This document shows, piece by piece, positions 1 to 57,073 of a stretch of DNA of 64,000 bases. The notes beneath the pieces were generated by a model that was not told the DNA's origin, did not search any database, and worked only from the letters and a program-made list of their open reading frames with translations. This DNA comes from an uncultured Caldilineales bacterium (GTDB lineage: Bacteria; Chloroflexota; Anaerolineae; J102), in the NCBI GenBank assembly GCA_964460135.1, contig CAYWPZ010000001.1, forward strand, positions 7,469 to 71,468, in the 5' to 3' direction. How positions within the stretch are numbered: the first letter of the stretch is position 1; every line of letters starts with the position of its first letter. Both the position numbers and the translations under genes were made by a program.

Positions 1-2026
1 CATCCAGACCGCCTTCATCGACGCCGGCGGCGGCGTATGGTTCGGCGCCAACAATGGCGGCGCCATTCGCGTCGATCCAACCAGTAGACGGATCGACCAC
101 CTGACCAGCGATGACGGTCTCAGCGGCGATAGTGTTTTCGCCATCGCCCAAACGCCCGATGGCGCCATGTGGTTCGGCGTCTATGGCTTTGGCTTGGATC
201 GTTGGGACGGGGAAGATTGGCAGCACTTCAGCCCAGAGGACGGGCTGATCTCCGACAAGGTGCAAGATCTGCTGGCCGATAGCCGCGGCCGGCTTTGGCT
301 CGCAACCGAAGAAGGTGTGTCCATGCTTGAAAACGGGACCTGGCAAAACTTCACCGTCGCGGACGGCCTGGCAGGGCCTGATGTCAACGCCATCTCCGAG
401 GGCCAGGACGGGAGCCTGTGGTTTGCCATCTGGGGCGCAGGCGCCGCCAGGCTGAAGGATGGCGTCTGGACCACCTTCACCCCCCGCGATGGGTTGCTGG
501 CGCCGGGCCTCGACGCTGTTTGGGCCGATCCGAGCAGCGCCCGTGTCTGGTTCGGCACTGTTAGCGGCCTGAGCCAGTTCGATGGCCGCACCTGGCAGAA
601 CTTTAGCGTTGTCAACGGGCTGAACATCGGCCGGGTCAAGGCCTTGCATGCAGATGGCGACCAGGGTCTCTACCTGGGCGTGGCCGAAGGCTTGGCGCAG
701 TTCTCGCCCGACCGCACGCCGCCCGGCATCAGCGTCACCGCCGTCAACGGCGTTGTCCCCGGCGACCAGCGGGCCGAGGCCGCGCCCGGCGACCCCATCC
801 GCATCGACTGGGAAGGCCGCGATCTGCTGACGTCCAGCGAAGAACTCTTCTACCTCTATCGGCTGCTCGGCTACGACGCCGACTGGCAGGCCACGCGACG
901 CCTGCTCGTCACCTATCCGCCTCTGCCCGAGGGCGTCTACACCTTCGAGGTGCAAGCGCGCGACGGTGGGCTGAACTATTCGGCGCCCGCCAGTCTGCAA
1001 CTGATCGTGAAACGCCGCCCGCTGATGATTTGGCTGCCCGTGACCGGTGAGGTGCGAGCAGAAATCGTCTTTGTCATCGTCTCCATCCTCGGCGCCTTGG
1101 CTGCCCTGGGCGCCTATGCCATCTGGAGCACACTGACGCGGCGGGCGATGACACGCCAGGCGGTCGAGCGTCGCTTCAATCCCTATGTCGCCGGCAGCCC
1201 GATCCGCGAAGAGACAATGTTCTACGGCCGCGCCCAAGTCCTGCGCGAAATCGAATCAGCCCTGCACAAGAACAGCGTCATGATCCACGGCGAACGACGC
1301 ATCGGCAAGACATCGTTGCTCTACCAGCTCTTGCAGCGACTGGACGGCAAAGTGGACGGCGGCTACCGCTTCCTGCCCATCTTCGTCGATCTCGAAGGCA
1401 CACCAGAGTCGCAATTCTTCCACCGCCTGATGGAAGCCGCCCTCGATGCCGTGCACCACCAGTTGCCCGAGCTGCCACACAACCAGGACCTCTTCTACTC
1501 GCATCTCGACAGCGGCGAAGCCTACGAAGACCGCTATTTCCGTCGCGATCTGCGCAGCCTCCTCGACCACTTGCGCCAGCATTTCGGCCAACAGCCGCGC
1601 CTCATCCTCCTGCTGGACGAGGCCGACATCATGAACACCTACAACACACTCACCCAACAACAATTCCGCCGCATCCTGCAAGACACGTTTGCCCAAAACG
1701 TGGGCGTCGTCGTGGCCGGCGTCAACATCAGCAAAGCCTGGGATCGGGTCGAGTCGCCGTGGTACAACATGTTCATCGAGATGCAAATGCCCCCCTTCGA
1801 CCGCCCGGAAGCCGAACGCCTGATGCGCGAGCCGGTGGCCAAATTCTACCGCTGGGACAAAGACGCCATCCACTATGTCTTTGCCCAGAGCCAGGGTCGC
1901 CCGCACCGCATCCAACAGATCTGCCTCGAGGCCGTCAACTGCATGCTCGACGAGAAACGTCAGCGCATCCAGATGAGTGATGTCCAACGGGCCTATGAAC
2001 GCATCCTGCAAGCAGAAAAAACCTGA
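1..2026 (+). CDS. 5'-partial sensor protein: two-component-regulator propeller repeats + Y_Y_Y domain, one TM helix, C-terminal AAA+/STAND-type P-loop NTPase
   Basis: Open frame from position 2 with no stop, so the gene starts upstream of the window. The N-terminal part is propeller-like repeats (GxWxGT, DGLxxxxV motifs) ending in a Y_Y_Y-like segment (YLYRLLGYDADWQ). A hydrophobic TM segment (VFVIVSILGALAALGAYAIW) follows, then a Walker A (GERRIGKTSLL) and Walker B (LILLLDEAD). Confidence 0.7.
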   Translation, partial: IQTAFIDAGGGVWFGANNGGAIRVDPTSRRIDHLTSDDGLSGDSVFAIAQTPDGAMWFGVYGFGLDRWDGEDWQHFSPEDGLISDKVQDLLADSRGRLWLATEEGVSMLENGTWQNFTVADGLAGPDVNAISEGQDGSLWFAIWGAGAARLKDGVWTTFTPRDGLLAPGLDAVWADPSSARVWFGTVSGLSQFDGRTWQNFSVVNGLNIGRVKALHADGDQGLYLGVAEGLAQFSPDRTPPGISVTAVNGVVPGDQRAEAAPGDPIRIDWEGRDLLTSSEELFYLYRLLGYDADWQATRRLLVTYPPLPEGVYTFEVQARDGGLNYSAPASLQLIVKRRPLMIWLPVTGEVRAEIVFVIVSILGALAALGAYAIWSTLTRRAMTRQAVERRFNPYVAGSPIREETMFYGRAQVLREIESALHKNSVMIHGERRIGKTSLLYQLLQRLDGKVDGGYRFLPIFVDLEGTPESQFFHRLMEAALDAVHHQLPELPHNQDLFYSHLDSGEAYEDRYFRRDLRSLLDHLRQHFGQQPRLILLLDEADIMNTYNTLTQQQFRRILQDTFAQNVGVVVAGVNISKAWDRVESPWYNMFIEMQMPPFDRPEAERLMREPVAKFYRWDKDAIHYVFAQSQGRPHRIQQICLEAVNCMLDEKRQRIQMSDVQRAYERILQAEKT

Positions 2027-2071
2027 TCCCGCCCTCTCCCCCCCCACCACTCCACACCCCCAGGAGTGCTC

Positions 2072-3397
2072 ATGATGTCTCCTTTCCCCCCTCACAACCC
2101 CTATGTCGTCGGCAGCTGGGTCAATGGCCCCGCCTACTACGGGCACATCGGTCTGCGCTTCAACCTCCTCTACGACCCCAACCGCCAGTTGTGGGTGGTT
2201 GGCACCCGGCGCGTGGGCAAGACCTCGCTACTGCGCCAGCTCATAACCGACGCCGGCCCTGAATTCGTGCCCCTCTACTGGGACATGCAAGCCTGCCAGA
2301 GCGCCGATGACCTGAACAACGAACTGAACTACAGCCTGGAAGAGCGAGCGCCCATCCTGCGCCAAATCGGCGTCGACGTCGACTCGCTGGCCAACCAGGA
2401 CTTCCGCCAGGCGCTCCAGACCGTCTCGCTGGCTGCCGCCGCCCACAACCGCCAGATCCTGCTCCTCATCGACGAACCAGAGGCCCTGCTCACCATTGGC
2501 GACGATCAGGACATGATCCTGCGGCGACTGCGCCTGGTCTTCCAGCGCCAGCCGAACCTGCGCGTGGTGCTCACCTCGACCAAGGTCTTCTCCCGCATCC
2601 AGACGCTCACCCAACACTGGCTCACCTCCTCATTTCTCCAGGACTTCTCCCCCCGCAACCTGTCGAGCATGGAGCCGGTGGAGTCGGAGGCCCTCATCCG
2701 CCAGTCGCAGGGCCAGCGCGTCGATGTCGACGCCAAGACCATCGCCCTCATCCAGCGCCACACCAACCACCACCCCTATCTCGTCCAGTGGCTGTGCCGC
2801 AAGCTCTACCAAGAAAACAACAGCCTGCGCCACCCCGACGAACACGACCTGCAAACCGACGCCACCCTGAACGGCCTGTGGGAGATCACCTACAAACACC
2901 TCTCCCCAAGCGAGCGCTGCATCCTCCTGCACCTGGCGTCCGCTGGCCCCAACCAGACCGAGGACGAAGCCGGATTGGCCGCCGCCCTCCACCTGCGCCC
3001 TTCCGACGCCCATCTCTATCTTTACGCCCTCACTCGCCTGGGGTATACTCGCATCAATGATGGTCAGGTTGGCATTGGCAACACCTTCTTTGCGCAATGG
3101 CTGCAAACCCATGCCGCTTCGCTGCCCATCGACGACGCCGAGATCGCCGATTCGCTGGTCAAAGAAGTAGCTTCGACCGGCCACCAGCAAGAAAAGGCAT
3201 TCTGGCAACAACAATTGCAGATCTTCCGTGTCAATCTGGCCCGGCTTGAGGTCCAGGCCGCCAACTACGGCCTCACCGTCCCGCTCTCCCTCCAAAACGA
3301 GATCGACTTTCACCTGCGCAAGGTCGCCGACTTGGAGGGCCGGCTCGACGGCCTCAACGAAAGCCCCCTCTCCCGTTCGGCTCCGGCGCCCGGATAG
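2072..3397 (+). CDS. AAA+/STAND-type P-loop NTPase with C-terminal coiled coil, paralog of the ATPase domain of the upstream gene
   Basis: ATG at 2072 preceded by AGGAG. Walker A GTRRVGKTSLL, Walker B ILLLIDEPE. The N-terminal motif NPYVVGSWV..YYGHIG parallels NPYVAGSPI..FYGRAQ in the upstream gene. The C-terminus is rich in Q/L heptads. Confidence 0.7.
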   Translation: MMSPFPPHNPYVVGSWVNGPAYYGHIGLRFNLLYDPNRQLWVVGTRRVGKTSLLRQLITDAGPEFVPLYWDMQACQSADDLNNELNYSLEERAPILRQIGVDVDSLANQDFRQALQTVSLAAAAHNRQILLLIDEPEALLTIGDDQDMILRRLRLVFQRQPNLRVVLTSTKVFSRIQTLTQHWLTSSFLQDFSPRNLSSMEPVESEALIRQSQGQRVDVDAKTIALIQRHTNHHPYLVQWLCRKLYQENNSLRHPDEHDLQTDATLNGLWEITYKHLSPSERCILLHLASAGPNQTEDEAGLAAALHLRPSDAHLYLYALTRLGYTRINDGQVGIGNTFFAQWLQTHAASLPIDDAEIADSLVKEVASTGHQQEKAFWQQQLQIFRVNLARLEVQAANYGLTVPLSLQNEIDFHLRKVADLEGRLDGLNESPLSRSAPAPG

Positions 3398-3434
3398 CCG
3401 TCCCCCAAAACGGAATTCAGCGCCCACTCTCTGC

Positions 3435-3470
3435 AAGATGCTGCTCCCCACAGGGCAGCATCTTCATTTG
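3435..3470 (+). terminator. Rho-independent terminator candidate after the NTPase gene
   Basis: 10-bp stem AAGATGCTGC / GCAGCATCTT with a 10-nt loop, followed by CATTT. Confidence 0.5.
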
Positions 3471-3486
3471 CACCACAAGGTTCCTC

Positions 3487-4584
3487 ATGTCCATCCAACT
3501 TGTCGATCTAAAAGCTCAATACGACACCATCCGTCCGGCCATCGACGCCGCCATCACCCGCGTGATCGAAAACACCGCCTTCATCATGGGCAAAGAAGTG
3601 ACAGCTTTCGAACAGGCCTTCGCCGACTATTGCGGCGTCAAACATGCCCTGGGCGTCTCCAGCGGCACCTCGGCCCTGTTCCTCACCCTGGCCGGCTACG
3701 GCATCGGCCCCGGCGACGAAGTCATCACCACTCCCTTCACCTTCTTCGCCACCGGCGAAGCCATCTCGCAGACCGGCGCCCGTCCCGTCTTCGTCGATAT
3801 CGACCCTGTCACCTACAACATCGACCCCGCCCGCATCGAGGCCGCCATTACACCCTACACCAAGGCGATCATGCCCGTGCATCTGTTCGGCCAGCCCGCC
3901 GACATGGATGCCATCGACGCCATCGCCAAACGCCGCCGGCTGTTGCTGATCGAAGACGCCGCCCAGGCCCACGGCAGCCGGTACAAGGGCAAGCGCGCCG
4001 GCAGCCTCAGCGACGCCGCCTGCTTCTCGTTCTACCCCAGCAAGAACCTGGGCTGCTACGGCGATGGCGGCGCCGTCCTCACCGACGACGACCACCTGGC
4101 CGCGCGCGTGCGCTCGCTGCGCGACCATGGCCGCACCACCAAATACGAACACGCCGAACTGGGCTACGGCCACCGACTCGACGGCATTCAGGCCGCCATC
4201 TTGTCGGCCAAACTGCCGCATCTGGACGAGTGGAACGCCGGCCGCCGCCGACTGGCCGCCCGCTATGATGAACTGCTGGCCGATTCGCCGCTTGTCACCC
4301 CCCGCCACCTGAGCGAAACCGAGCCGGTCTATCATTGCTACGTCATCCGCACTGCCCAACGCGACCACTTGCTCAAGACCCTGCACGCCGCCGGGATCGG
4401 CGCCGGCGTCCACTACCCCATCCCCCTCCACCTGCAACCGGCCTACCGCTACCTCGAACTCGAACCCGACAGCTTCCCCATCTCCGAACAGGCCGCCGGC
4501 GAAGTCCTCACCCTCCCGCTCTACGCCGAAATGACCGACGAGCAGCAGGACGAAGTAGTCGCCGCCATCCGGGGCGCAGTCTAG
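3487..4584 (+). CDS. DegT/DnrJ/EryC1/StrS family PLP-dependent sugar aminotransferase
   Basis: Whole-length family resemblance, including the conserved FSFYPSKNLG lysine region and a GDEVITTPFTF block. Confidence 0.88.
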   Translation: MSIQLVDLKAQYDTIRPAIDAAITRVIENTAFIMGKEVTAFEQAFADYCGVKHALGVSSGTSALFLTLAGYGIGPGDEVITTPFTFFATGEAISQTGARPVFVDIDPVTYNIDPARIEAAITPYTKAIMPVHLFGQPADMDAIDAIAKRRRLLLIEDAAQAHGSRYKGKRAGSLSDAACFSFYPSKNLGCYGDGGAVLTDDDHLAARVRSLRDHGRTTKYEHAELGYGHRLDGIQAAILSAKLPHLDEWNAGRRRLAARYDELLADSPLVTPRHLSETEPVYHCYVIRTAQRDHLLKTLHAAGIGAGVHYPIPLHLQPAYRYLELEPDSFPISEQAAGEVLTLPLYAEMTDEQQDEVVAAIRGAV

Positions 4585-5606: not shown

Positions 5607-6824
5607 ATGCGCCTCGGCGTCCTCACCCACAACTACCCGCGCTTCGACGGCGACTTCTCCGGCCATTTCATCCAGCAACTGTGCGAAGAACTGGCCCGGC
5701 AGGGCGACGAGGTGCACGTGCTGGCGCCGTTCGACGCCGCCTACCGGCCCCAAATCCTGGCCGGAGCCAATCCCAAGCTACATCTCTATCGCTATGCCTG
5801 GTCCGATGGCGCCCACAAACTGGGCTATATGCGGACGATGGCGGCCGATATGCAGATGCGGCTGAACACCTACGCCCTCAGCCCGCTGCTCTTCGCCCGC
5901 GGCATCCAGACCACGCTGCGGGTAGCCCGCCAACAGCGGCTGCAATTGCTCCATGCCCACTGGGCTTTGCCCAACGGCTTCATCGCCGCCGTCGTCAGCC
6001 GCCGTCTGCGCCTGCCGTTGGTGGTCAGCATCCCCGGCAGCGATGCCCTGGTGGCGGGGCAGAATCCCCTGTTCCGGCGCATGGCGCGCTTCGCCTTCGC
6101 TCAGGCCGCCCTGATCACCGCCAATGCTGAGGTCTTGGGCGAGGTGGCGGTAGAGGAACTGGGCGCGGACCCGGCCAAATTCGAATTGATCATCTACGGC
6201 GTCGATCCCAACCGGCTGCAGCCTGATCCCACCGGCGTGGCGGCGCTCCGTCAACGCTTGGGCATCCCCGCTGGCGCCTTCGTCTTTCTGGCCGTGGGGC
6301 GCATGGTCTACAAGAAGGGTTTCGACATCCTCTTGCATGCCCTGGCCCAGTTGGGCGAGGCCGGCCAGGGCTGCCATACCATCCTCGTGGGCGAGGGCGA
6401 TCTCTGGCAGGAGTGGCAGGAGCTTGCGCGCACGCTAGGGCTGGCCAACCTGCACTGGGTGGGCAACATCCCCACCGACCAAATGTCCGCCTTCTACAAC
6501 GCCGCCGACGCCCTGGTGATGCCCAATGTGCGCCGGCCGGCCACCGGACTGGGGGTGACGGTGTTGGAGGCCATGGCCTGCGGCAAAGCCATCATCGCCA
6601 GCAACACGGCCGGGAACACCCTGGTGGTAGAGCCGGGCGTCAACGGCCTGATCACCCCCGAAGGCGACGCCCCGGCCCTGGCCGCGGCCATGCTCGATCT
6701 CGCTGGCGACCCTGCCCGCGCCCAACGCCTGGGACAGGCCAGCCGCCATCTGATCGAGACCCGCTTTGGCTGGCCGCACCTCGCCGCCCACTATCGGCAG
6801 CGGTTCCAGGCCATGTTGCCCTGA
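5607..6824 (+). CDS. GT4 (group 1) glycosyltransferase
   Basis: GT-B layout with a C-terminal EX7E-like region (GLGVTVLEAMACGKAIIAS). First in-frame ATG at 5607; the ORF-track start at 5589 is a TTG. Confidence 0.8.
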   Translation: MRLGVLTHNYPRFDGDFSGHFIQQLCEELARQGDEVHVLAPFDAAYRPQILAGANPKLHLYRYAWSDGAHKLGYMRTMAADMQMRLNTYALSPLLFARGIQTTLRVARQQRLQLLHAHWALPNGFIAAVVSRRLRLPLVVSIPGSDALVAGQNPLFRRMARFAFAQAALITANAEVLGEVAVEELGADPAKFELIIYGVDPNRLQPDPTGVAALRQRLGIPAGAFVFLAVGRMVYKKGFDILLHALAQLGEAGQGCHTILVGEGDLWQEWQELARTLGLANLHWVGNIPTDQMSAFYNAADALVMPNVRRPATGLGVTVLEAMACGKAIIASNTAGNTLVVEPGVNGLITPEGDAPALAAAMLDLAGDPARAQRLGQASRHLIETRFGWPHLAAHYRQRFQAMLP

Positions 6825-6959
6825 GTTTGTTCAGCCAGACGCCACCTGCTCCAGGTCGCCAAGGATCACTCTCGCCGGTGGGGGGAACTCATCGATGATG
6901 AAAAGAAGCCGGTCGCGAGACATGCACACGGCGCCGCCAAATCGCTACCGGCAACTTCG

Positions 6960-8537
6960 CTATCTCGCCAGCATCACATCCACCGTCGCCAACAGCGTTG
7001 TGCTGTCGGCGGCCGGATTGAAGCTGTAGATGGCAATGCGGCCGGGGCGAGCTGTGCGGGGTTTGCGCAGGCCGAACTTCACCTGCCACTTGCCCTCGGA
7101 GGCCGCCTCATCCGCACTGACGCGGCTGCGCGCCTGCCCCAGCACCGTCCCCGCCAGATCCTCGACCCGCACCAGGATGGTCTCGTCCTTCATCCCCAGC
7201 GCCGTGCCGCTCACCTGCACCGAGCCTCTGAGCGTCGTCCCCGGCGCCGGCGATGCGACGACGACGACCTTGCCCGCGCTTGGCCCGGCCAGGGCCACAT
7301 TCACCCAGGTCAGCAGGGCCAGGCTGCCGTCGGCCGGATTCTCGCTATAGACGGCCACCCGGCCGGGTGCAGCCGTTGGCGGGTCCTGGAAGGGAAGCTC
7401 GACGGCGAAACCGCCCTTTGCGCCCATTTCGGCGGCGTCGATGACCACTGCCACCGCGCCCATAACCTCCCCGGCCTCGGTCTCGACCCGCACGATCACT
7501 TTGTTCTCGAACGCGCCCTCGGCCTCGCCCGCCACCTGCACCCTGCCGCTCAGGGCGGTGCGGGGCAGTGGGCTGAAGATCGCACCCGTGGGACCAAAAG
7601 CGCCGGTCGGGGATGCGTTGGCGGCAGGCGAAGGGACGACAGGGGCGGGTTGGGCGGAAGGGGTGGCGGCCGGGTCAGACGTCTCCACGGGCGGGGGATC
7701 GAGCAGATCGATGCGGCGGGCCAACAGACGCCGGCCGTTGTAGTCGGGCGCGGCAAAACGCAGCTCGCCCCAGACGCGCACCCGGCCCTGATAGTCGGTC
7801 AGGCTTTGCAGCAAAGTCAACACTTCGGCCCGGTTGCTATCGATGCCGTGTTGGTTGCCTCCCTCGCCGGCAAAGTAGTCATCGAACGGCATCCCCGGCG
7901 GCAACTTGACGATGCGCCCCACCCAGCCATCGGCCTGCTGCGAGCGCGGGCGCGGCAGCCGGGCCGAGACGACGGTGACGACGATGCCCTCATCGCCCAC
8001 TTCGCCCCACCAACGCGCGTCGTTGCCGGCGTTGGCCAGGACGGCAGGGCTGACCAGGCGACCATCGACCAGATAGGGGGCGCCGACAACGATCTGCCAG
8101 GGGGTAGCGGCAAAGCCGGCCGCCGCCTGCACCAGTTCGGCCTCCAGCTCAACGTCGGCAGGGGCAAAAGCGGCATTGGCTGGCAGATCCAGCCGGTAAG
8201 CGCCCCGCACGTAGTCCAGGGCGAGGTCACGCACGGCCGCGGGGGCGAGGATGCTGGTAGGCAGGGCGGGCGGGGACGGCTCGGTGGGCGGGACAGGGGC
8301 CGGCCCGGTGATGGCCTGGCTGGCCGTGATCGCCTCGCCGCTCTGCACCAGGGGCAGCGTCAGGGTCGAAACCTGGGTGGAGGTGATGCCGACAGGCGTC
8401 GCCGGCTCGGCGGCAGGGGGCAGGGCAGGCGTCTCGGCGGTGGGCGCCGGAGATCCTGCCGGCAGCGAGCCGACGCAGGCGCTTAGCGCCGCCGCCAGCA
8501 ACACAGCCATGAGGCCAAGCAAGAAAGTGCGTCGCAT
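6960..8537 (-). CDS. Secreted lipoprotein with GerMN-like region and two Gmad2-type Ig-like repeats
   Basis: Signal peptide with lipobox MRRTFLLGLMAVLLAAALSAC. Start ATG at 8537 behind GGGAGG. Two repeated ~90-aa modules (..RVAVYSENPADGSLALLTWVNV / ..RIAIYSFNPAADSTTLLATVDV). Confidence 0.6.
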   Translation of the reverse strand: MRRTFLLGLMAVLLAAALSACVGSLPAGSPAPTAETPALPPAAEPATPVGITSTQVSTLTLPLVQSGEAITASQAITGPAPVPPTEPSPPALPTSILAPAAVRDLALDYVRGAYRLDLPANAAFAPADVELEAELVQAAAGFAATPWQIVVGAPYLVDGRLVSPAVLANAGNDARWWGEVGDEGIVVTVVSARLPRPRSQQADGWVGRIVKLPPGMPFDDYFAGEGGNQHGIDSNRAEVLTLLQSLTDYQGRVRVWGELRFAAPDYNGRRLLARRIDLLDPPPVETSDPAATPSAQPAPVVPSPAANASPTGAFGPTGAIFSPLPRTALSGRVQVAGEAEGAFENKVIVRVETEAGEVMGAVAVVIDAAEMGAKGGFAVELPFQDPPTAAPGRVAVYSENPADGSLALLTWVNVALAGPSAGKVVVVASPAPGTTLRGSVQVSGTALGMKDETILVRVEDLAGTVLGQARSRVSADEAASEGKWQVKFGLRKPRTARPGRIAIYSFNPAADSTTLLATVDVMLAR

Positions 8538-51858: not shown

Positions 51859-51927
51859 CTGCCGCCTGCGACCCGCCCCCGCTCCTTGTCTACCGGTTTC
51901 CTTGCCTACTCATCTACATCCACCCCG

Positions 51928-52381
51928 ATGAATGCCATCGAAGTCCAGGCCCTGCGCTGCGTCTACCAGGCCAAGACGGGCATCCTCCGCCGCGCGGCCA
52001 AGGAAGTCGTGGCGGTGGAGGGCGTCAGTTTTGCCGTCGCGCAGGGCGAGTTGCTTGGCTTGCTCGGTCCCAACGGCGCCGGCAAAACGACCACGATCAA
52101 GATGCTGACCACGTTGCTGATCCCGACCAGCGGCGCCGCAACCATCCTCGGCTTTGATCTGGTCAAGCAGGCCGAGAAGGTGCGCCCGCTATCTCCTGGC
52201 CCCCTACTGGGCTGCCCGCGCCCTCCACGCCACCTCCAGCGGCCAGACTTCGCTGGCCGACGCCGATCTCAGTTGGGCCATCCTCAGCGCCCTCAGCCTG
52301 ATCTACCTCGCGCTTTCGCGCTGGCTATTCCTCCGGATGCTTCATAAAGCCCGCGTCGAGGCGACGTTGGGGGCGATGTGA
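51928..52381 (+). pseudogene. Remnant of an ABC transporter: ATPase N-terminal ~87 aa (Walker A) joined out of frame to a permease-like C-terminal TM tail
   Basis: GPNGAGKTT ... ILGFDLVKQAEKVR, then the frame is lost near 52186. The second frame (52154-52381) encodes ..LSWAILSALSLIYLALSRWLF..., typical of a last TM helix. No Q-loop, signature or Walker B is present. Confidence 0.6.
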
Positions 52382-52458
52382 GCGAGATCGAGGTGTGATT
52401 CGTACAACTGTTCGATTTCGAGTATACTTGGGTACATCTTACTTGGGGTCAGAATTCT

Positions 52459-53457
52459 ATGTCTCAAGAGAGCGACCTGCCGTTCGGGAGCGAGTTCTCT
52501 CCCAGCCAAATCGACTTATCCGAAATCCTGGAAATTGTCGAAACGTACTCGGGGGATGTGCAGGCGTTGCAGGACGCGATCCAGGCTCGCTATTTCAGCG
52601 CACACGGCGGTGGAAGCGCCCGCAATCAGAAGACCCTGGCGATGAACTGCCGGCTGGGGATGAAGGCATACGGCATCATCGACGAGACAGCCACGATCAC
52701 AGCCTTTGGACGCAGGCTCTATCGAATCAGAGAGAATGGGCCGGCCTTGTACACCCTTCTGGCCAGACACATCCTGCTGCACTTGAAGGGCATGACGTTG
52801 GTGCAATGCATTCAAGATATGACGGCGGCCGGCGAGGAAGTCAATTTGACGACGCTGCGCCAGGCTTTGGCCGAGCGCGGCATCCACTATCCGGCGGGTG
52901 GCAAACATCCCAGTATGATGCGTTTGTGGCTTGTCAAAGCAGGCGTGTTTGTGGGCGCTCGTTGGCAGGTGGACAACCTGAGATTGAAAGAAGTGCTGGG
53001 CATCAACCCAGCCGACTTCGACACCCTTGCCCCTCTGACAGCCGCACAACGTTGTTTCTTGCTGGCGCTGGCCAATACAGGCCTCAGCACGCCGCAGCCG
53101 GCGAATGAGATTGCCCGGCTCGCTGCGGCAACTTATGGCGTTCGCTTCCCCGAGAAGAGCTTGCCCAAACTCGTGCTCAACGCCCTGGTCGAGGCTGGAT
53201 ACATTACCGCCACGAAGACGACCGAAGGTCGCGGGGCGAAACCCTTCCTGGTGTCACCCACCGAAAAACTGGTCCACGATGTGGTCGAGCCGCTGCTAGA
53301 ACAGATGAAGTCGCAGACGGATATGAAGCTGGTTCAGTTGATGCGCAAACCGCTTGCCGACGTCCTCGCCGAGCTTGACGCCCAAGACCGGTATATCGCT
53401 GGATTGGCGCTCGAAGCTCCTCCATCGTCATGGTCGATCGACGCGACCTCGATCTGA
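52459..53457 (+). CDS. Hypothetical 332-aa protein on the low-GC island; candidate restriction endonuclease or specificity partner of the adjacent methyltransferase
   Basis: ATG at 52459. Local GC is about 55% against a 68% background. It lies directly upstream of, and co-oriented with, the beta-class MTase. No family motif is recognisable by eye. Confidence 0.45.
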   Translation: MSQESDLPFGSEFSPSQIDLSEILEIVETYSGDVQALQDAIQARYFSAHGGGSARNQKTLAMNCRLGMKAYGIIDETATITAFGRRLYRIRENGPALYTLLARHILLHLKGMTLVQCIQDMTAAGEEVNLTTLRQALAERGIHYPAGGKHPSMMRLWLVKAGVFVGARWQVDNLRLKEVLGINPADFDTLAPLTAAQRCFLLALANTGLSTPQPANEIARLAAATYGVRFPEKSLPKLVLNALVEAGYITATKTTEGRGAKPFLVSPTEKLVHDVVEPLLEQMKSQTDMKLVQLMRKPLADVLAELDAQDRYIAGLALEAPPSSWSIDATSI

Positions 53458-53550
53458 TCCGAAACAAGCCAGTGCACATCGTCGACGCGTTCAACCGCGA
53501 AGCAAGTCATGCGATGACTCTCAAGAAGCTGGAAATTTAGCGAGGAAGTC

Positions 53551-54688
53551 ATGAGCGCCGAACACACGTCTACAGCTACCCTTTTCCTCGAAACCAGCCT
53601 CGGAAAAATCTATCAGGGCGATTCACTCCGCTTTCTCGCTGATCTGGAACCTGCCAATGCCGATCTGATCATAACCAGCCCTCCCTTCGGTTTGGTCAGG
53701 AAGAAAGAATATGGCAATGTCGAAGCCAACCAGTATCTAGACTGGTTCAAACCCTTTGCTGCACAATTTCACCGTGTGCTGAAGGAAACGGGCAGTCTTG
53801 TGATCGACATCGGCGGGGCCTGGAATCCGGGAACGCCGACGCGCAGCCTCTATCACTTCAAGCTGCTGATCATGCTTTGTGAGGAATTCGGCTTTCATCT
53901 CGCCCAGGATTTCTACTGGTGGAATCCTTCCAGGCTGCCCACGCCCGCCGAATGGGTGACAGTACGCCACATTCGCGTCAAAGACGCCATTGATACCGTT
54001 TGGTGGCTTTCCAAGACCCCCCTGGCCCAAGGCGAGCAATCGGCGTGTGCTGCAACCCTACAGCAACAGTATGCAAGAACTGCTCAAAAAGGGCTATCGA
54101 GCCAAAAAACGCCCCTCCGGCCACGACATCAGCGATAAATTCGCGGTGGACAACGGCGCTGCTATCCCTCCCAACCTGATCGCCATTCCAAATACCGAGA
54201 GCAACAGCCACTACCTCCGCTATTGTCAGGAACGAGCCATCACACCTCACCCCGCCCGCTACCCTGCCGCCCTGCCCGAATACTTCATTCGTATGCTGAC
54301 CGATAAAGGCGACCTGGTGTTCGATCCATTTGCCGGCAGCTGCGTCACCGGCGAAGTCGGCGAACGGCTTCAGCGACGCTGGTTGTGCGTTGAACTGGTC
54401 GAAGAGTACTTGCTCGGCGCCCGCGGTCGATTCGAACAAACTGGCATTCCCGAACCGGAGATCAAAACCGCAAGCGATGGGGATGACAACTATTATCGCA
54501 TGCCGCACCCTGGCATCCTCTGGAACGGCGCCACGGAGACGCCATTGGCTGCCGATGGCGGCAAGGCGCGGCATTTTTCCGGCGATCCGGCCAGAAGCGG
54601 CAGCCGGACGACGCCAGCACATGCTCCTCCAAGTCGCTCCTCCGCTCCCCTTCTCGACCTGCTTCGAGAGCAAACGTCTGATGCCTGA
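53551..54688 (+). pseudogene. Beta-class N4-cytosine/N6-adenine DNA methyltransferase (SPPF motif IV before FxGxG motif I), interrupted by a +1 frameshift in a C6 homopolymer (54017-54022)
   Basis: Frame 1 (53551-54138) carries IITSPPFG. Frame 2 (53990-54688) carries VFDPFAGSCVTG. Removing one C from gaCCCCCCtgg gives a continuous ..[20 protein letters not shown].. product. ATG is preceded by GAGGAAG. Confidence 0.7.
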
Positions 54689-54718
54689 TCAGTTCACTCA
54701 TCATCTCATCTTGCCCCG

Positions 54719-54768
54719 CCTCTCCGCCTCCCTCCGCATCTTCTTCTCCGGCGCCTGGCTCTCCCACA
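54719..54768. repeat. 50-bp direct repeat, left copy
   Basis: cctctccgccTccctccgcatcttcttctccggcgcctggctctccCaca, 48/50 identical to the copy at 55472-55521. Confidence 0.85.
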
Positions 54769-54798
54769 GACGCGGGTGAGAACGGCAGCGGCGGAGCC

Positions 54799-55116
54799 TC
54801 ATGCTGCCGCAGTGAGCGGCCGAATGCGGAACAATTCATCACTATGGCGCTGTTTGGATTCCCACAGGTCTCTTGCATGTTGCGCATTCAACCAGAATTC
54901 GGGAGAATTTCCGAAGAGGCGCGACAAACGTAGCGCCATCAACGGCGTCATGGAGCGCTCCTCTCTCAACAGTTCGTGAATCGTCTGCCGCGACACGCCC
55001 AGTTCCGCTGCCAGCGCACTGGCCGATAGCCCGTAGTCCGGCATGAAATCCTCGCGCAGCATCGCGCCAGGATGTGTTGGTGGAATTTGACGAGGCTCGT
55101 TATTTGCGAATGACAT
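54799..55116 (-). CDS. higA: HigA-family antitoxin (XRE-type HTH)
   Basis: Sequence ..LSASALAAELGVSRQTIHELLREERSMTPLMALRLSRLFGNSPEFWLNAQ.. ATG at 55116 behind GAGGAGAAAG, 10 nt after the higB stop. Confidence 0.85.
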   Translation of the reverse strand: MSFANNEPRQIPPTHPGAMLREDFMPDYGLSASALAAELGVSRQTIHELLREERSMTPLMALRLSRLFGNSPEFWLNAQHARDLWESKQRHSDELFRIRPLTAAA

Positions 55117-55126
55117 GGCTTTCTCC

Positions 55127-55408
55127 TCAATGATAATCGGTGACTTCGACATCGAAAGCGTCGCCGTCCACGAAACGAAAGCAAATGCGCCACTGATCAT
55201 TGATGGCGATCGACCACTGGCCTTCTCGGTCTCCCTTCAAGGCGTGCAAGCGGTTGCTCGGCGGTACTTTGAGATCATTCAAGTTCTGTGCCAGATCGAT
55301 GTACTCCAGCCTTCGCAGCGCCAGCTTCGCCAAATCTGGCGGCAGCCGCTTTGACTTGCCGCTGACATACAGCCGCTGCGTTTCTCTGTCAGCGAACGTC
55401 TGAATCAT
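55127..55408 (-). CDS. higB: HigB toxin (RelE/ParE superfamily)
   Basis: 93 aa, [14 protein letters not shown]...[21 protein letters not shown]. Toxin-first order as in HigB-HigA. Confidence 0.85.
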
Positions 55409-55471
55409 AGCCGAATGGTAATCCGTCACGTGACACCTGTCAATCCCCTCGCCCACCCTTTCCATGCCCAA

Positions 55472-55521
55472 CCTCTCCGCCCCCCTCCGCATCTTCTTCT
55501 CCGGCGCCTGGCTCTCCTACA
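55472..55521. repeat. 50-bp direct repeat, right copy
   Basis: cctctccgccCccctccgcatcttcttctccggcgcctggctctccTaca, about 100 bp upstream of rtcB. Confidence 0.85.
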
Positions 55522-55621: not shown

Positions 55622-57073
55622 ATGGTCGCCCGCAAAGACCTGCGCCAAATCAACCCCTACCTGTACGAGATTGCCTGTGAATTTCGCCAGGATATGCGCG
55701 TCCCCGCCCGCATCTACGCCGACGAAGCCATCTTGCAGGCGGCCCTGCGCGACCAATCCATCGACCAATTGGTCAACACCGCCACCCTGCCCGGCATCGT
55801 CCAATATGCCCTGGCCATGCCCGACATCCACCAGGGCTACGGTTTCTCCATCGGCGGCGTGGTGGCCACCCGCGCCGATGACGGCGTCATCTCGCCCGGC
55901 GGGGTGGGTTATGACATCAATTGCGGCGTCCGGCTGCTGGCCTCGGACATGGAGGAGGGCGAAGTGCGGCCTTACATGGAAGATCTGGCCACCGCCCTCT
56001 CCCAAAAAATCCCCAGCGGCGTCGGCGTCGGGGGCTTCATCCGCCTCAGCGACCAGGAGATGGAGCAAGTGCTGGAAACCGGGGCGCGCTGGACGCTGAA
56101 GCGAGGCATGGCGCGCAAAGAGGACCTCATCCACACCGAAGAAGAAGGCTCGATGCCCGGCGCTCGCGCCGACAAAGTCAGCCGCGAGGCCAAGAAACGC
56201 GGCCGGGATCAACTCGGCACCCTGGGCGCAGGCAATCACTTTGCCGAGATCGATGTCGTCGATGAGATTTTCGACCAGGAACTGGCCCGCGCCTTTGGCC
56301 TCTTCCCCGGCCAGGTCGTGCTGCAAATCCATTGTGGCTCGCGCGGGCTGGGACACCAGGTCTGTACCGATTATGTCAACACCTTCCAGGCCGTCGTCAA
56401 ACACTACGGCATCGTCCTGCCCGACCGCCAGCTGGTGTGCGCGCCGGTGAAATCGGCCGAAGGGCAAGATTACATCGCCGCCATGGCTGCCGCCGCCAAC
56501 TTTGCCTGGGCCAATCGCCAGGCCCTCAGCCACCAGGCCCGGCAGGCATTCGCCGATGTGTTGGCCGGCAAAGTACGCGGCTACGACCTGCGCCTGGTCT
56601 ACGACATCGCCCACAACATGGCCAAGCTGGAGACGCACGAGGTGGAGGGCCGCAACCTGCGGGTCTGCGTCCATCGCAAGGGCGCCACCCGCGCCTTTGG
56701 CCCTGGCAGCCCTGTCCTCCCGCCCGACTATCGCCAGGCCGGGCAGCCGGTGTTTGCGCCGGGCAGCATGGGCACGGCCAGCTATGTGCTGGCTGGCACC
56801 GAAGGCTCGATGCGCCAGACCTTTGGCTCCACCTGCCACGGCGCCGGCCGCCAGATGAGCCGCGCCGCCGCCAAGAAACAGGTGCAGGGCGGCAGGCTGA
56901 AGCACGAACTGGAAGAGGGCGGGGTGGTGGTGCGCGCCGGCAGCCTGGCCGGGCTGGCCGAAGAGGCCCCCATCGCCTACAAGGACGTGAGCCGGGTGGT
57001 GGATGTCGTTCACAACGCCGGCATCGCCCGCAAAGTGGCCCGGCTGCGGCCGATCGGCGTCGTCAAAGGCTGA
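55622..57073 (+). CDS. rtcB: RNA-splicing ligase RtcB
   Basis: N-terminus aligns with archaeal and bacterial RtcB (..[38 protein letters not shown]..). The C-terminus ..[20 protein letters not shown] aligns as well. Confidence 0.92.

Follow-up and report, generated by a model that had tools for sequence, protein, structure and literature searches.

R.PvuII, the restriction endonuclease of the PvuII system, is small (157 aa), homodimeric and of Type IIP. Type IIS enzymes usually act at asymmetric sites and cut a set distance away from them, with both strands methylated by a pair of methylases or by a fused one, and Mrr of E. coli combines a winged helix with an Mrr_cat domain. Here we compare with these systems a locus in a 64,000-nucleotide stretch of DNA (the window) from an uncultured Caldilineales bacterium, in which an ORF of 332 aa precedes the gene for an M.PvuII-type methylase (M). 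The ORF is very probably the truncated remnant of the restriction-endonuclease gene (R) of a two-gene Type II restriction-modification (R-M) module, left by ordinary R-M decay, a reading built on demonstrated homology, deletion, frameshift, conserved R-M pairing and folds.

A truncated endonuclease gene and a frameshifted methylase gene

The ORF begins with an ATG at 52459 and ends at 53457 on the forward strand (332 aa, by ORF listing and by reading of the sequence), and a gap of 93 bp separates it from the next co-oriented ORF, which starts at 53551 and carries the SPPF motif of a methyltransferase (MTase). An earlier note on this DNA had given the same arrangement, and its coordinates and motif are confirmed. 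G+C content is 0.56–0.60 at 52–56 kb and 0.66–0.71 on either side, a dip that fits the foreign island which the note had proposed. Used as a query, the 332-aa ORF found nothing significant in Pfam, NCBIfam, PADLOC or PDB sequences, in agreement with the observation that no nuclease motif is visible in it by eye. Within 52100–54900 a promoter scan found no sigma-70-like promoter, and terminator-like sites occurred at chance level.

The protein had also been called unrecognisable and a candidate novel nuclease, and here the searches led elsewhere. About 1,994 homologues were retrieved from a 5.8-billion-protein collection, and the best 120 of these are 67–87% identical to the ORF and almost all about 455–472 aa long with a C-terminal PF04471 (Mrr_cat) domain, a standard PD-(D/E)xK nuclease domain. 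Complete homologues measure about 456 aa, and the window ORF aligns to their first ~320 residues only; over these N-terminal 320 residues it is 60–87% identical to complete PF04471 homologues. A HMMER search of 1.84 billion cluster representatives gave 486 clusters, with the match ending near query residue 320 in every long hit. P0001 (458 aa) is the closest homologue, at 87% identity, and its Mrr_cat domain spans residues 318–431 and scores 35 bits against a Pfam cutoff of 21 bits. Residues E349, D351, Q367 and K369 (P0001 numbering) are at least 90% conserved in a 68-sequence family alignment, and the D...QxK of the family has an arrangement typical of Mrr-type PD-(D/E)xK sites.

The metagenomic contig that encodes P0001 (L001) is syntenic with the window at ~85% nucleotide identity. 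Its genes stand in the order ABC ATPase, ABC-2 permease, R (1687–3063, 458 aa), M (3068–4213, 381 aa), ABC-2 permease, NOV_C, RtcB and S8 peptidase. By blastn, window 52188–53417 corresponds to L001 1423–2651 and window 53420–54661 to L001 2943–4174, both at ~85% identity, and alignment with mafft places a single 289-nt gap between these two segments, which span R and M. The reading frame of R shifts at this point, since 289 is not a multiple of three, and the deletion takes E349, D351, Q367 and K369 with it. The features of the two genes are as follows:

52459–53418, + strand: 5' part of R, codons 1–320, homologous to P0001 residues 1–322; tandem winged-helix region and helical linker
53418–53421, + strand: junction left by the 289-bp deletion, which took out the counterpart of L001 2654–2942 (residues ~323–419, Mrr_cat core), by blastn and mafft
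53419–53457, + strand: out-of-frame tail of the ORF, PPSSWSIDATSI and a stop; 12 unrelated residues, product of the deletion
53421–53540, + strand: stranded 3' end of R, last 39 codons and stop, in another frame than the ORF, by three-frame translation and alignment to L001
53551–54688, + strand: M, a beta-class (SPPF before FxGxG) N4/N6 MTase gene of M.PvuII type with a +1 frameshift, by profiles and the L001 orthologue
54017–54022, + strand: C6 homopolymer with an extra C; the intact L001 orthologue has C5

The 12-residue tail has no counterpart in any homologue retrieved by the searches. The α-β-β-β-α-β core domain described by the family profile is absent from the window ORF, as is the catalytic D...(E/Q)xK, with D351, Q367 and K369 lying inside the deleted segment. 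The ORF thus shows no motif because its nuclease domain was deleted, not because its fold is new; it descends from an Mrr_cat restriction endonuclease, yet it lacks what defines that family. That R must be inactive, unless the frameshift in M is repairable, had been deduced in the earlier note from the broken state of M, and the cause can now be named as a frame-shifting deletion that removed the nuclease domain. The appropriate annotation for the ORF is pseudogene or truncated R gene. That it might be an entire new nuclease whose fold had escaped notice was also considered and was rejected, as homologue matches all stop near residue 320 and L001, the syntenic relative, contains the 289 bp that the window lacks.

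The methylase gene is split into two overlapping ORFs, 53551–54138 and 53990–54688, which match positions 11–162 and 151–300, respectively, of the PADLOC Type II MTase model PDLC03323. The two ORFs are therefore two halves of one model, and the M gene is frameshifted. The first ORF carries ...IITSPPFGL... and matches Pfam N6_N4_Mtase at 3.2e-17, while DPFAGSCVTG is found in the second, so that both motifs are present, not in one frame. Deleting one C in silico yields a continuous M protein of ~380 aa in which SPPF is followed by DPFAGSCVTG. The frameshift already noted in M is accordingly a +1 slip at the C6 run, which is C5 in L001. Compared with M.PvuII (PDB 1boo), an N4-cytosine MTase, the M orthologue of L001 gave E = 8e-104 and ~57% identity over 290 aa with one 3-residue indel. 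The frameshift could have arisen by slipped-strand mutation and might then be reversible, or it could be a sequencing error at the homopolymer, in which case M would be an active orphan.

The parent family, its folds and its methylase partner

No NCBIfam model covers the full-length homologue, and neither Pfam nor NCBIfam has a model for the 320-residue N-terminal region by itself. RefSeq labels family members of ~456 aa plainly as 'restriction endonuclease', for example WP_240094596.1 from the Roseivivax marinus plasmid NZ_CP090156. Literature searches on PvuII/Mrr/m4C and on CAGCTG/m4C/REBASE found no characterised member of the family. One cluster representative of 540 aa (P0128) bears a further ribbon-helix-helix domain at its N-terminus, which may be a built-in regulator. 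Several metagenomic members (P0004, P0012, P0016/P0031, P0025 and P0091) carry independent frameshifts or truncations, all inside the nuclease domain and with the recognition region intact; inactivation at the nuclease domain is thus recurrent in the family, although sequencing error may account for some of these cases.

The AlphaFold2 model of P0001 (pLDDT 82) is predicted to be divided as follows:

residues ~20–95: winged-helix-like unit 1
residues ~96–175: winged-helix-like unit 2
residues ~195–270: winged-helix-like unit 3
residues ~271–330: helical linker
residues ~334–455: α/β domain

In the model of the window protein (pLDDT 78.5) the winged-helix units and the linker are kept, and the tail is disordered (pLDDT <50 at residues 319–332). 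The earlier note had been prepared to give up the endonuclease reading for a protein assigned elsewhere and without a nuclease fold. The structure models do show the ORF, as it stands, to be of winged-helix type and free of such a fold, which leaves its origin as an R gene unaffected. Comparison with Type IIS structures (FokI, 2fok; N.BspD6I/R.BspD6I, 2ewf and 2p14; BpuJI, 5hlt; PaqCI, 8em1) indicated that the modelled winged-helix region resembles the recognition domains of BspD6I, BpuJI, PaqCI and FokI, with the following pair of values for each structure match:

N.BspD6I: 9.2; 170
BpuJI: 8.8; 162
PaqCI: 8.7; 165
FokI: 7.8; 174

Recognition and cleavage lie in separate domains, as they do in Type IIS enzymes. 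The ancestral enzyme thus appears to be modular in the manner of FokI at the level of the fold, a likeness in the models that falls short of establishing it as a member of the Type IIS class.

To examine the genomic setting of the family, one genome per GTDB species was scanned, which gave 268 relatives, and the neighbourhoods of the best 80 of the 268 were examined. These 80 come from Chloroflexota, Alpha-, Beta-, Gamma- and Deltaproteobacteria, Planctomycetota, Acidobacteriota, Verrucomicrobiota, Bacteroidota, Firmicutes and Cyanobacteria. An M.PvuII-like gene adjoins the R homologue in 78 of the 80 loci; it usually follows R on the same strand after 4–54 bp, and in some loci it lies upstream. 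Of the two remaining loci, one is on a contig that stops directly after R. The other (L012) belongs to a Candidatus Competibacteraceae MAG and has a full-length R at 6001–7359, with no M.PvuII-like methylase in the 6 kb to either side; its methylase could be distant or of another kind, or its R could be inactive. The same pair is present on the Roseivivax marinus plasmid NZ_CP090156, where RefSeq names the two products 'restriction endonuclease' and 'site-specific DNA-methyltransferase', and an archaeal relative (28% identity) on a Haloplanus plasmid is likewise flanked by methylases. In a cluster representative of 879 aa (P0178), N6_N4_Mtase, the winged-helix region and Mrr_cat are naturally fused into one protein. 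Adjacency in 78 of 80 genomes and this fusion bear out the suggestion that the ORF occupies the position of a Type II R gene. The genes that flank the module in the window are shared with L001 only; the other loci have just the two-gene R-M module in common with the window and differ in their flanks, as expected of a mobile R-M unit.

A conserved, adjacent cognate MTase gene, which marks Type II R-M systems, is thus found in the window, in 78 of 80 loci, on the plasmid and in the fusion, and an MTase gene intact in one frame is not found in the window. By gene content and conserved linkage the module is classed as a Type II R-M system of which neither gene is intact in this genome, and it would be expected to have behaved as one.

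The same linkage bears on a different view of the family, in which the nuclease depends on modification (Type IV, Mrr-like) or is otherwise unconventional and simply accompanies a methylase. Such a view draws on the Mrr type of the nuclease domain and on the matching winged helix and Mrr_cat layout of E. coli Mrr. Type IV genes stand alone without a cognate methylase, however, and here the tight co-oriented linkage to one methylase family in 78 of 80 loci and the M-R fusion are signatures of a cognate R-M pair. Moreover, a nuclease that attacked DNA modified by the enzyme encoded next to it would kill the cell, and the N-terminal region is three times the single winged helix of Mrr and resembles Type IIS recognition domains. 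We consider a Type IV or unconventional enzyme very unlikely.

The preferred explanation, decay of a Type II R-M module, has led us to propose the following model. In the intact enzyme of ~456 aa, an N-terminal array of three winged-helix-like units would read the DNA site and, beyond a helical linker, the C-terminal Mrr-type PD-(D/E)xK domain (D351...Q367-x-K369) would cut the DNA, while the partner M.PvuII-like methylase would add N4-methylcytosine and so shield the sites of the host. A modular endonuclease with a winged-helix reader, an Mrr-type cutter and m4C protection is the most likely mechanism, as judged from the models. The 289-bp deletion removed the catalytic core and shifted the frame, leaving an ORF that consists of the recognition region and 12 nonsense residues and that is incapable of DNA cleavage. 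After the loss of R the methylase gene would have been dispensable, and the +1 slip in the C run would have followed.

Apparently recent lesions in a decaying neighbourhood

The age of the two lesions was approached through dN/dS between the window and L001, which gave the following values:

R N-terminal part: 0.16
stranded R tail: 0.29
M before the frameshift: 0.16
M after the frameshift: 0.22

A signature of purifying selection therefore remains in segments that can no longer be translated. The ORF departs from family-conserved residues at 5 of 168 positions, and intact members do so at a mean of 3.6 ± 3.1. Since dN/dS is low in all segments and deviations at conserved sites are normal, both lesions look recent when set against the ~15% divergence from L001. 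A cell that loses methylation with its endonuclease still active dies, from which we infer that R was lost before M; the cell would tolerate a broken methylase because the nuclease went first.

An undecayed N-terminal region is also expected if selection has continued to act on the truncated protein, kept for its own use as a regulator, as a dominant-negative or immunity factor when further copies of this R-M system come in, or as the 'specificity partner' that had been suggested for it. The frame is open from the native ATG across all 320 homologous residues, conserved positions are kept as in intact relatives, and the winged-helix region is predicted to fold alone at the pLDDT of 78.5 given above. 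In addition, a few relatives of ~324–346 aa (P0191, P0192, P0166, P0124 and P0250) have no detectable nuclease domain, although these are perhaps fragments made by contig ends or frameshifts, like P0004, P0012, P0016, P0025 and P0091. What weighs against a useful fragment is that dN/dS is as low in the untranslatable parts, the R tail and M after the frameshift, so that good conservation simply reflects the recency of the lesions. Exact-sequence look-up of the truncated 332-aa protein in public assemblies returned no record, and decay is general in the surroundings, where the ABC genes have suffered deletions as well. Retention of the fragment for a function of its own is highly improbable, and we prefer to regard it as a remnant of R.

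The decay extends to the transporter operon around the R-M island. The window lacks 1300 bp that L001 has there (L001 123–1422; window 51886–52381, junction near 52188–52190), a deletion that joins ~95 codons from the start of the ABC ATPase gene to the last part of the first ABC-2 permease gene, and this operon is dead too. Downstream of M, HigA (54799–55200) and HigB (55127–55492) lie on the minus strand between 57-nt direct repeats (54712–54768 and 55465–55521) that are 93% identical and that both correspond to the start of the second ABC-2 permease gene (L001 4272–4356). HigBA at 54712–55521 looks like a cassette insertion with target duplication. The rest of the second permease gene and the NOV_C gene of L001 are missing from the window. 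The RtcB gene of L001 (6304–9288) holds an intein of ~1.5 kb at 6607–8133 (Pfam Intein_splicing), and the RtcB gene of the window (55622–57073) is intein-free, with a clean junction at ~55919–55924.

These rearrangements also bear on whether the lesions are artefacts of assembly or sequencing in an organism whose R-M system is in fact intact and active. A single additional C within a C6 run is typical of homopolymer errors, and the source is perhaps a metagenome-assembled genome. A clean internal deletion of 289 bp with colinear flanks, however, is atypical of sequencing error, and the same 4 kb contains the 1300-bp deletion, the HigBA insertion with its 57-nt repeats and the loss of the permease gene. 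Several structural differences within the same 4 kb point to real genome decay, and we regard an artefactual origin of the lesions as extremely improbable.

Comparison with described restriction enzymes and methylases

Genuine decay of an R-M module turns an apparently unrecognisable protein into a matter of routine annotation, namely a pseudogenised R beside a pseudogenised M on a small low-G+C island within a decaying ABC-transporter operon; an R gene can seem motif-free by eye when its recognition half alone remains. The parent family is large and phylogenetically widespread, with a Type IIS-like architecture, an M.PvuII-like partner and a recognition region without a dedicated Pfam or NCBIfam model, and it is at this family, rather than at the dead copy in the window, that enzymology is worth aiming. 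A more far-reaching proposal, which we put forward only tentatively and consider rather unlikely as a whole, is that the ~456-aa family constitutes an uncharacterised modular class (triple winged helix, Mrr cutter and PvuII-type m4C methylase), a non-homologous alternative to R.PvuII that possibly cuts at or beside CAGCTG-like sites, and that the window allele is a 'reader-only' derivative, possibly a retained DNA-binding protein. Within this proposal the modular, uncharacterised class is far better supported than a retained function of the window allele.

In comparison with the PvuII system, the methylase is a clear homologue of M.PvuII with SPPF...FxGxG in the same order, whereas the partner endonuclease is unrelated to R.PvuII and derives from a modular ancestor of ~456 aa. 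The short gap between R and M in most loci (4–54 bp) also differs from the arrangement with C.PvuII, as it offers no space for a C gene between the two. The recognition site may possibly be CAGCTG, judging by the ~57% identity to M.PvuII. In the window this hexamer occurs 13 times against 21.6 expected, which is unremarkable, and the 923 kb taken from 81 host loci contain 171 copies where 353 are expected, which ranks it 9 of 64 palindromes, many of which are equally depleted. Avoidance of CAGCTG is specific neither in the window nor in the 81 loci, and this counts against the preferred explanation.

The likeness to Type IIS enzymes is one of fold, sequence identity being just 7–16%. Unlike those enzymes, this family pairs in most loci with one small single-domain M.PvuII-like methylase, which suggests a symmetric (palindromic) site. 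The combination of a single methylase of this kind with a Type IIS-like architecture is a second point that counts against the preferred explanation.

As regards the Mrr_cat (PF04471) PD-(D/E)xK enzymes, the complete homologues carry the domain above the Pfam threshold together with D...QxK, and the window copy is without the whole domain owing to the 289-bp deletion. Orphan methyltransferases offer a partial parallel: here M is apparently disabled too, which makes the module doubly dead unless the homopolymer frameshift is an error or reversible. With degraded R-M systems the locus agrees in that R is hit in its catalytic domain, with M alongside and within an island of low G+C content.
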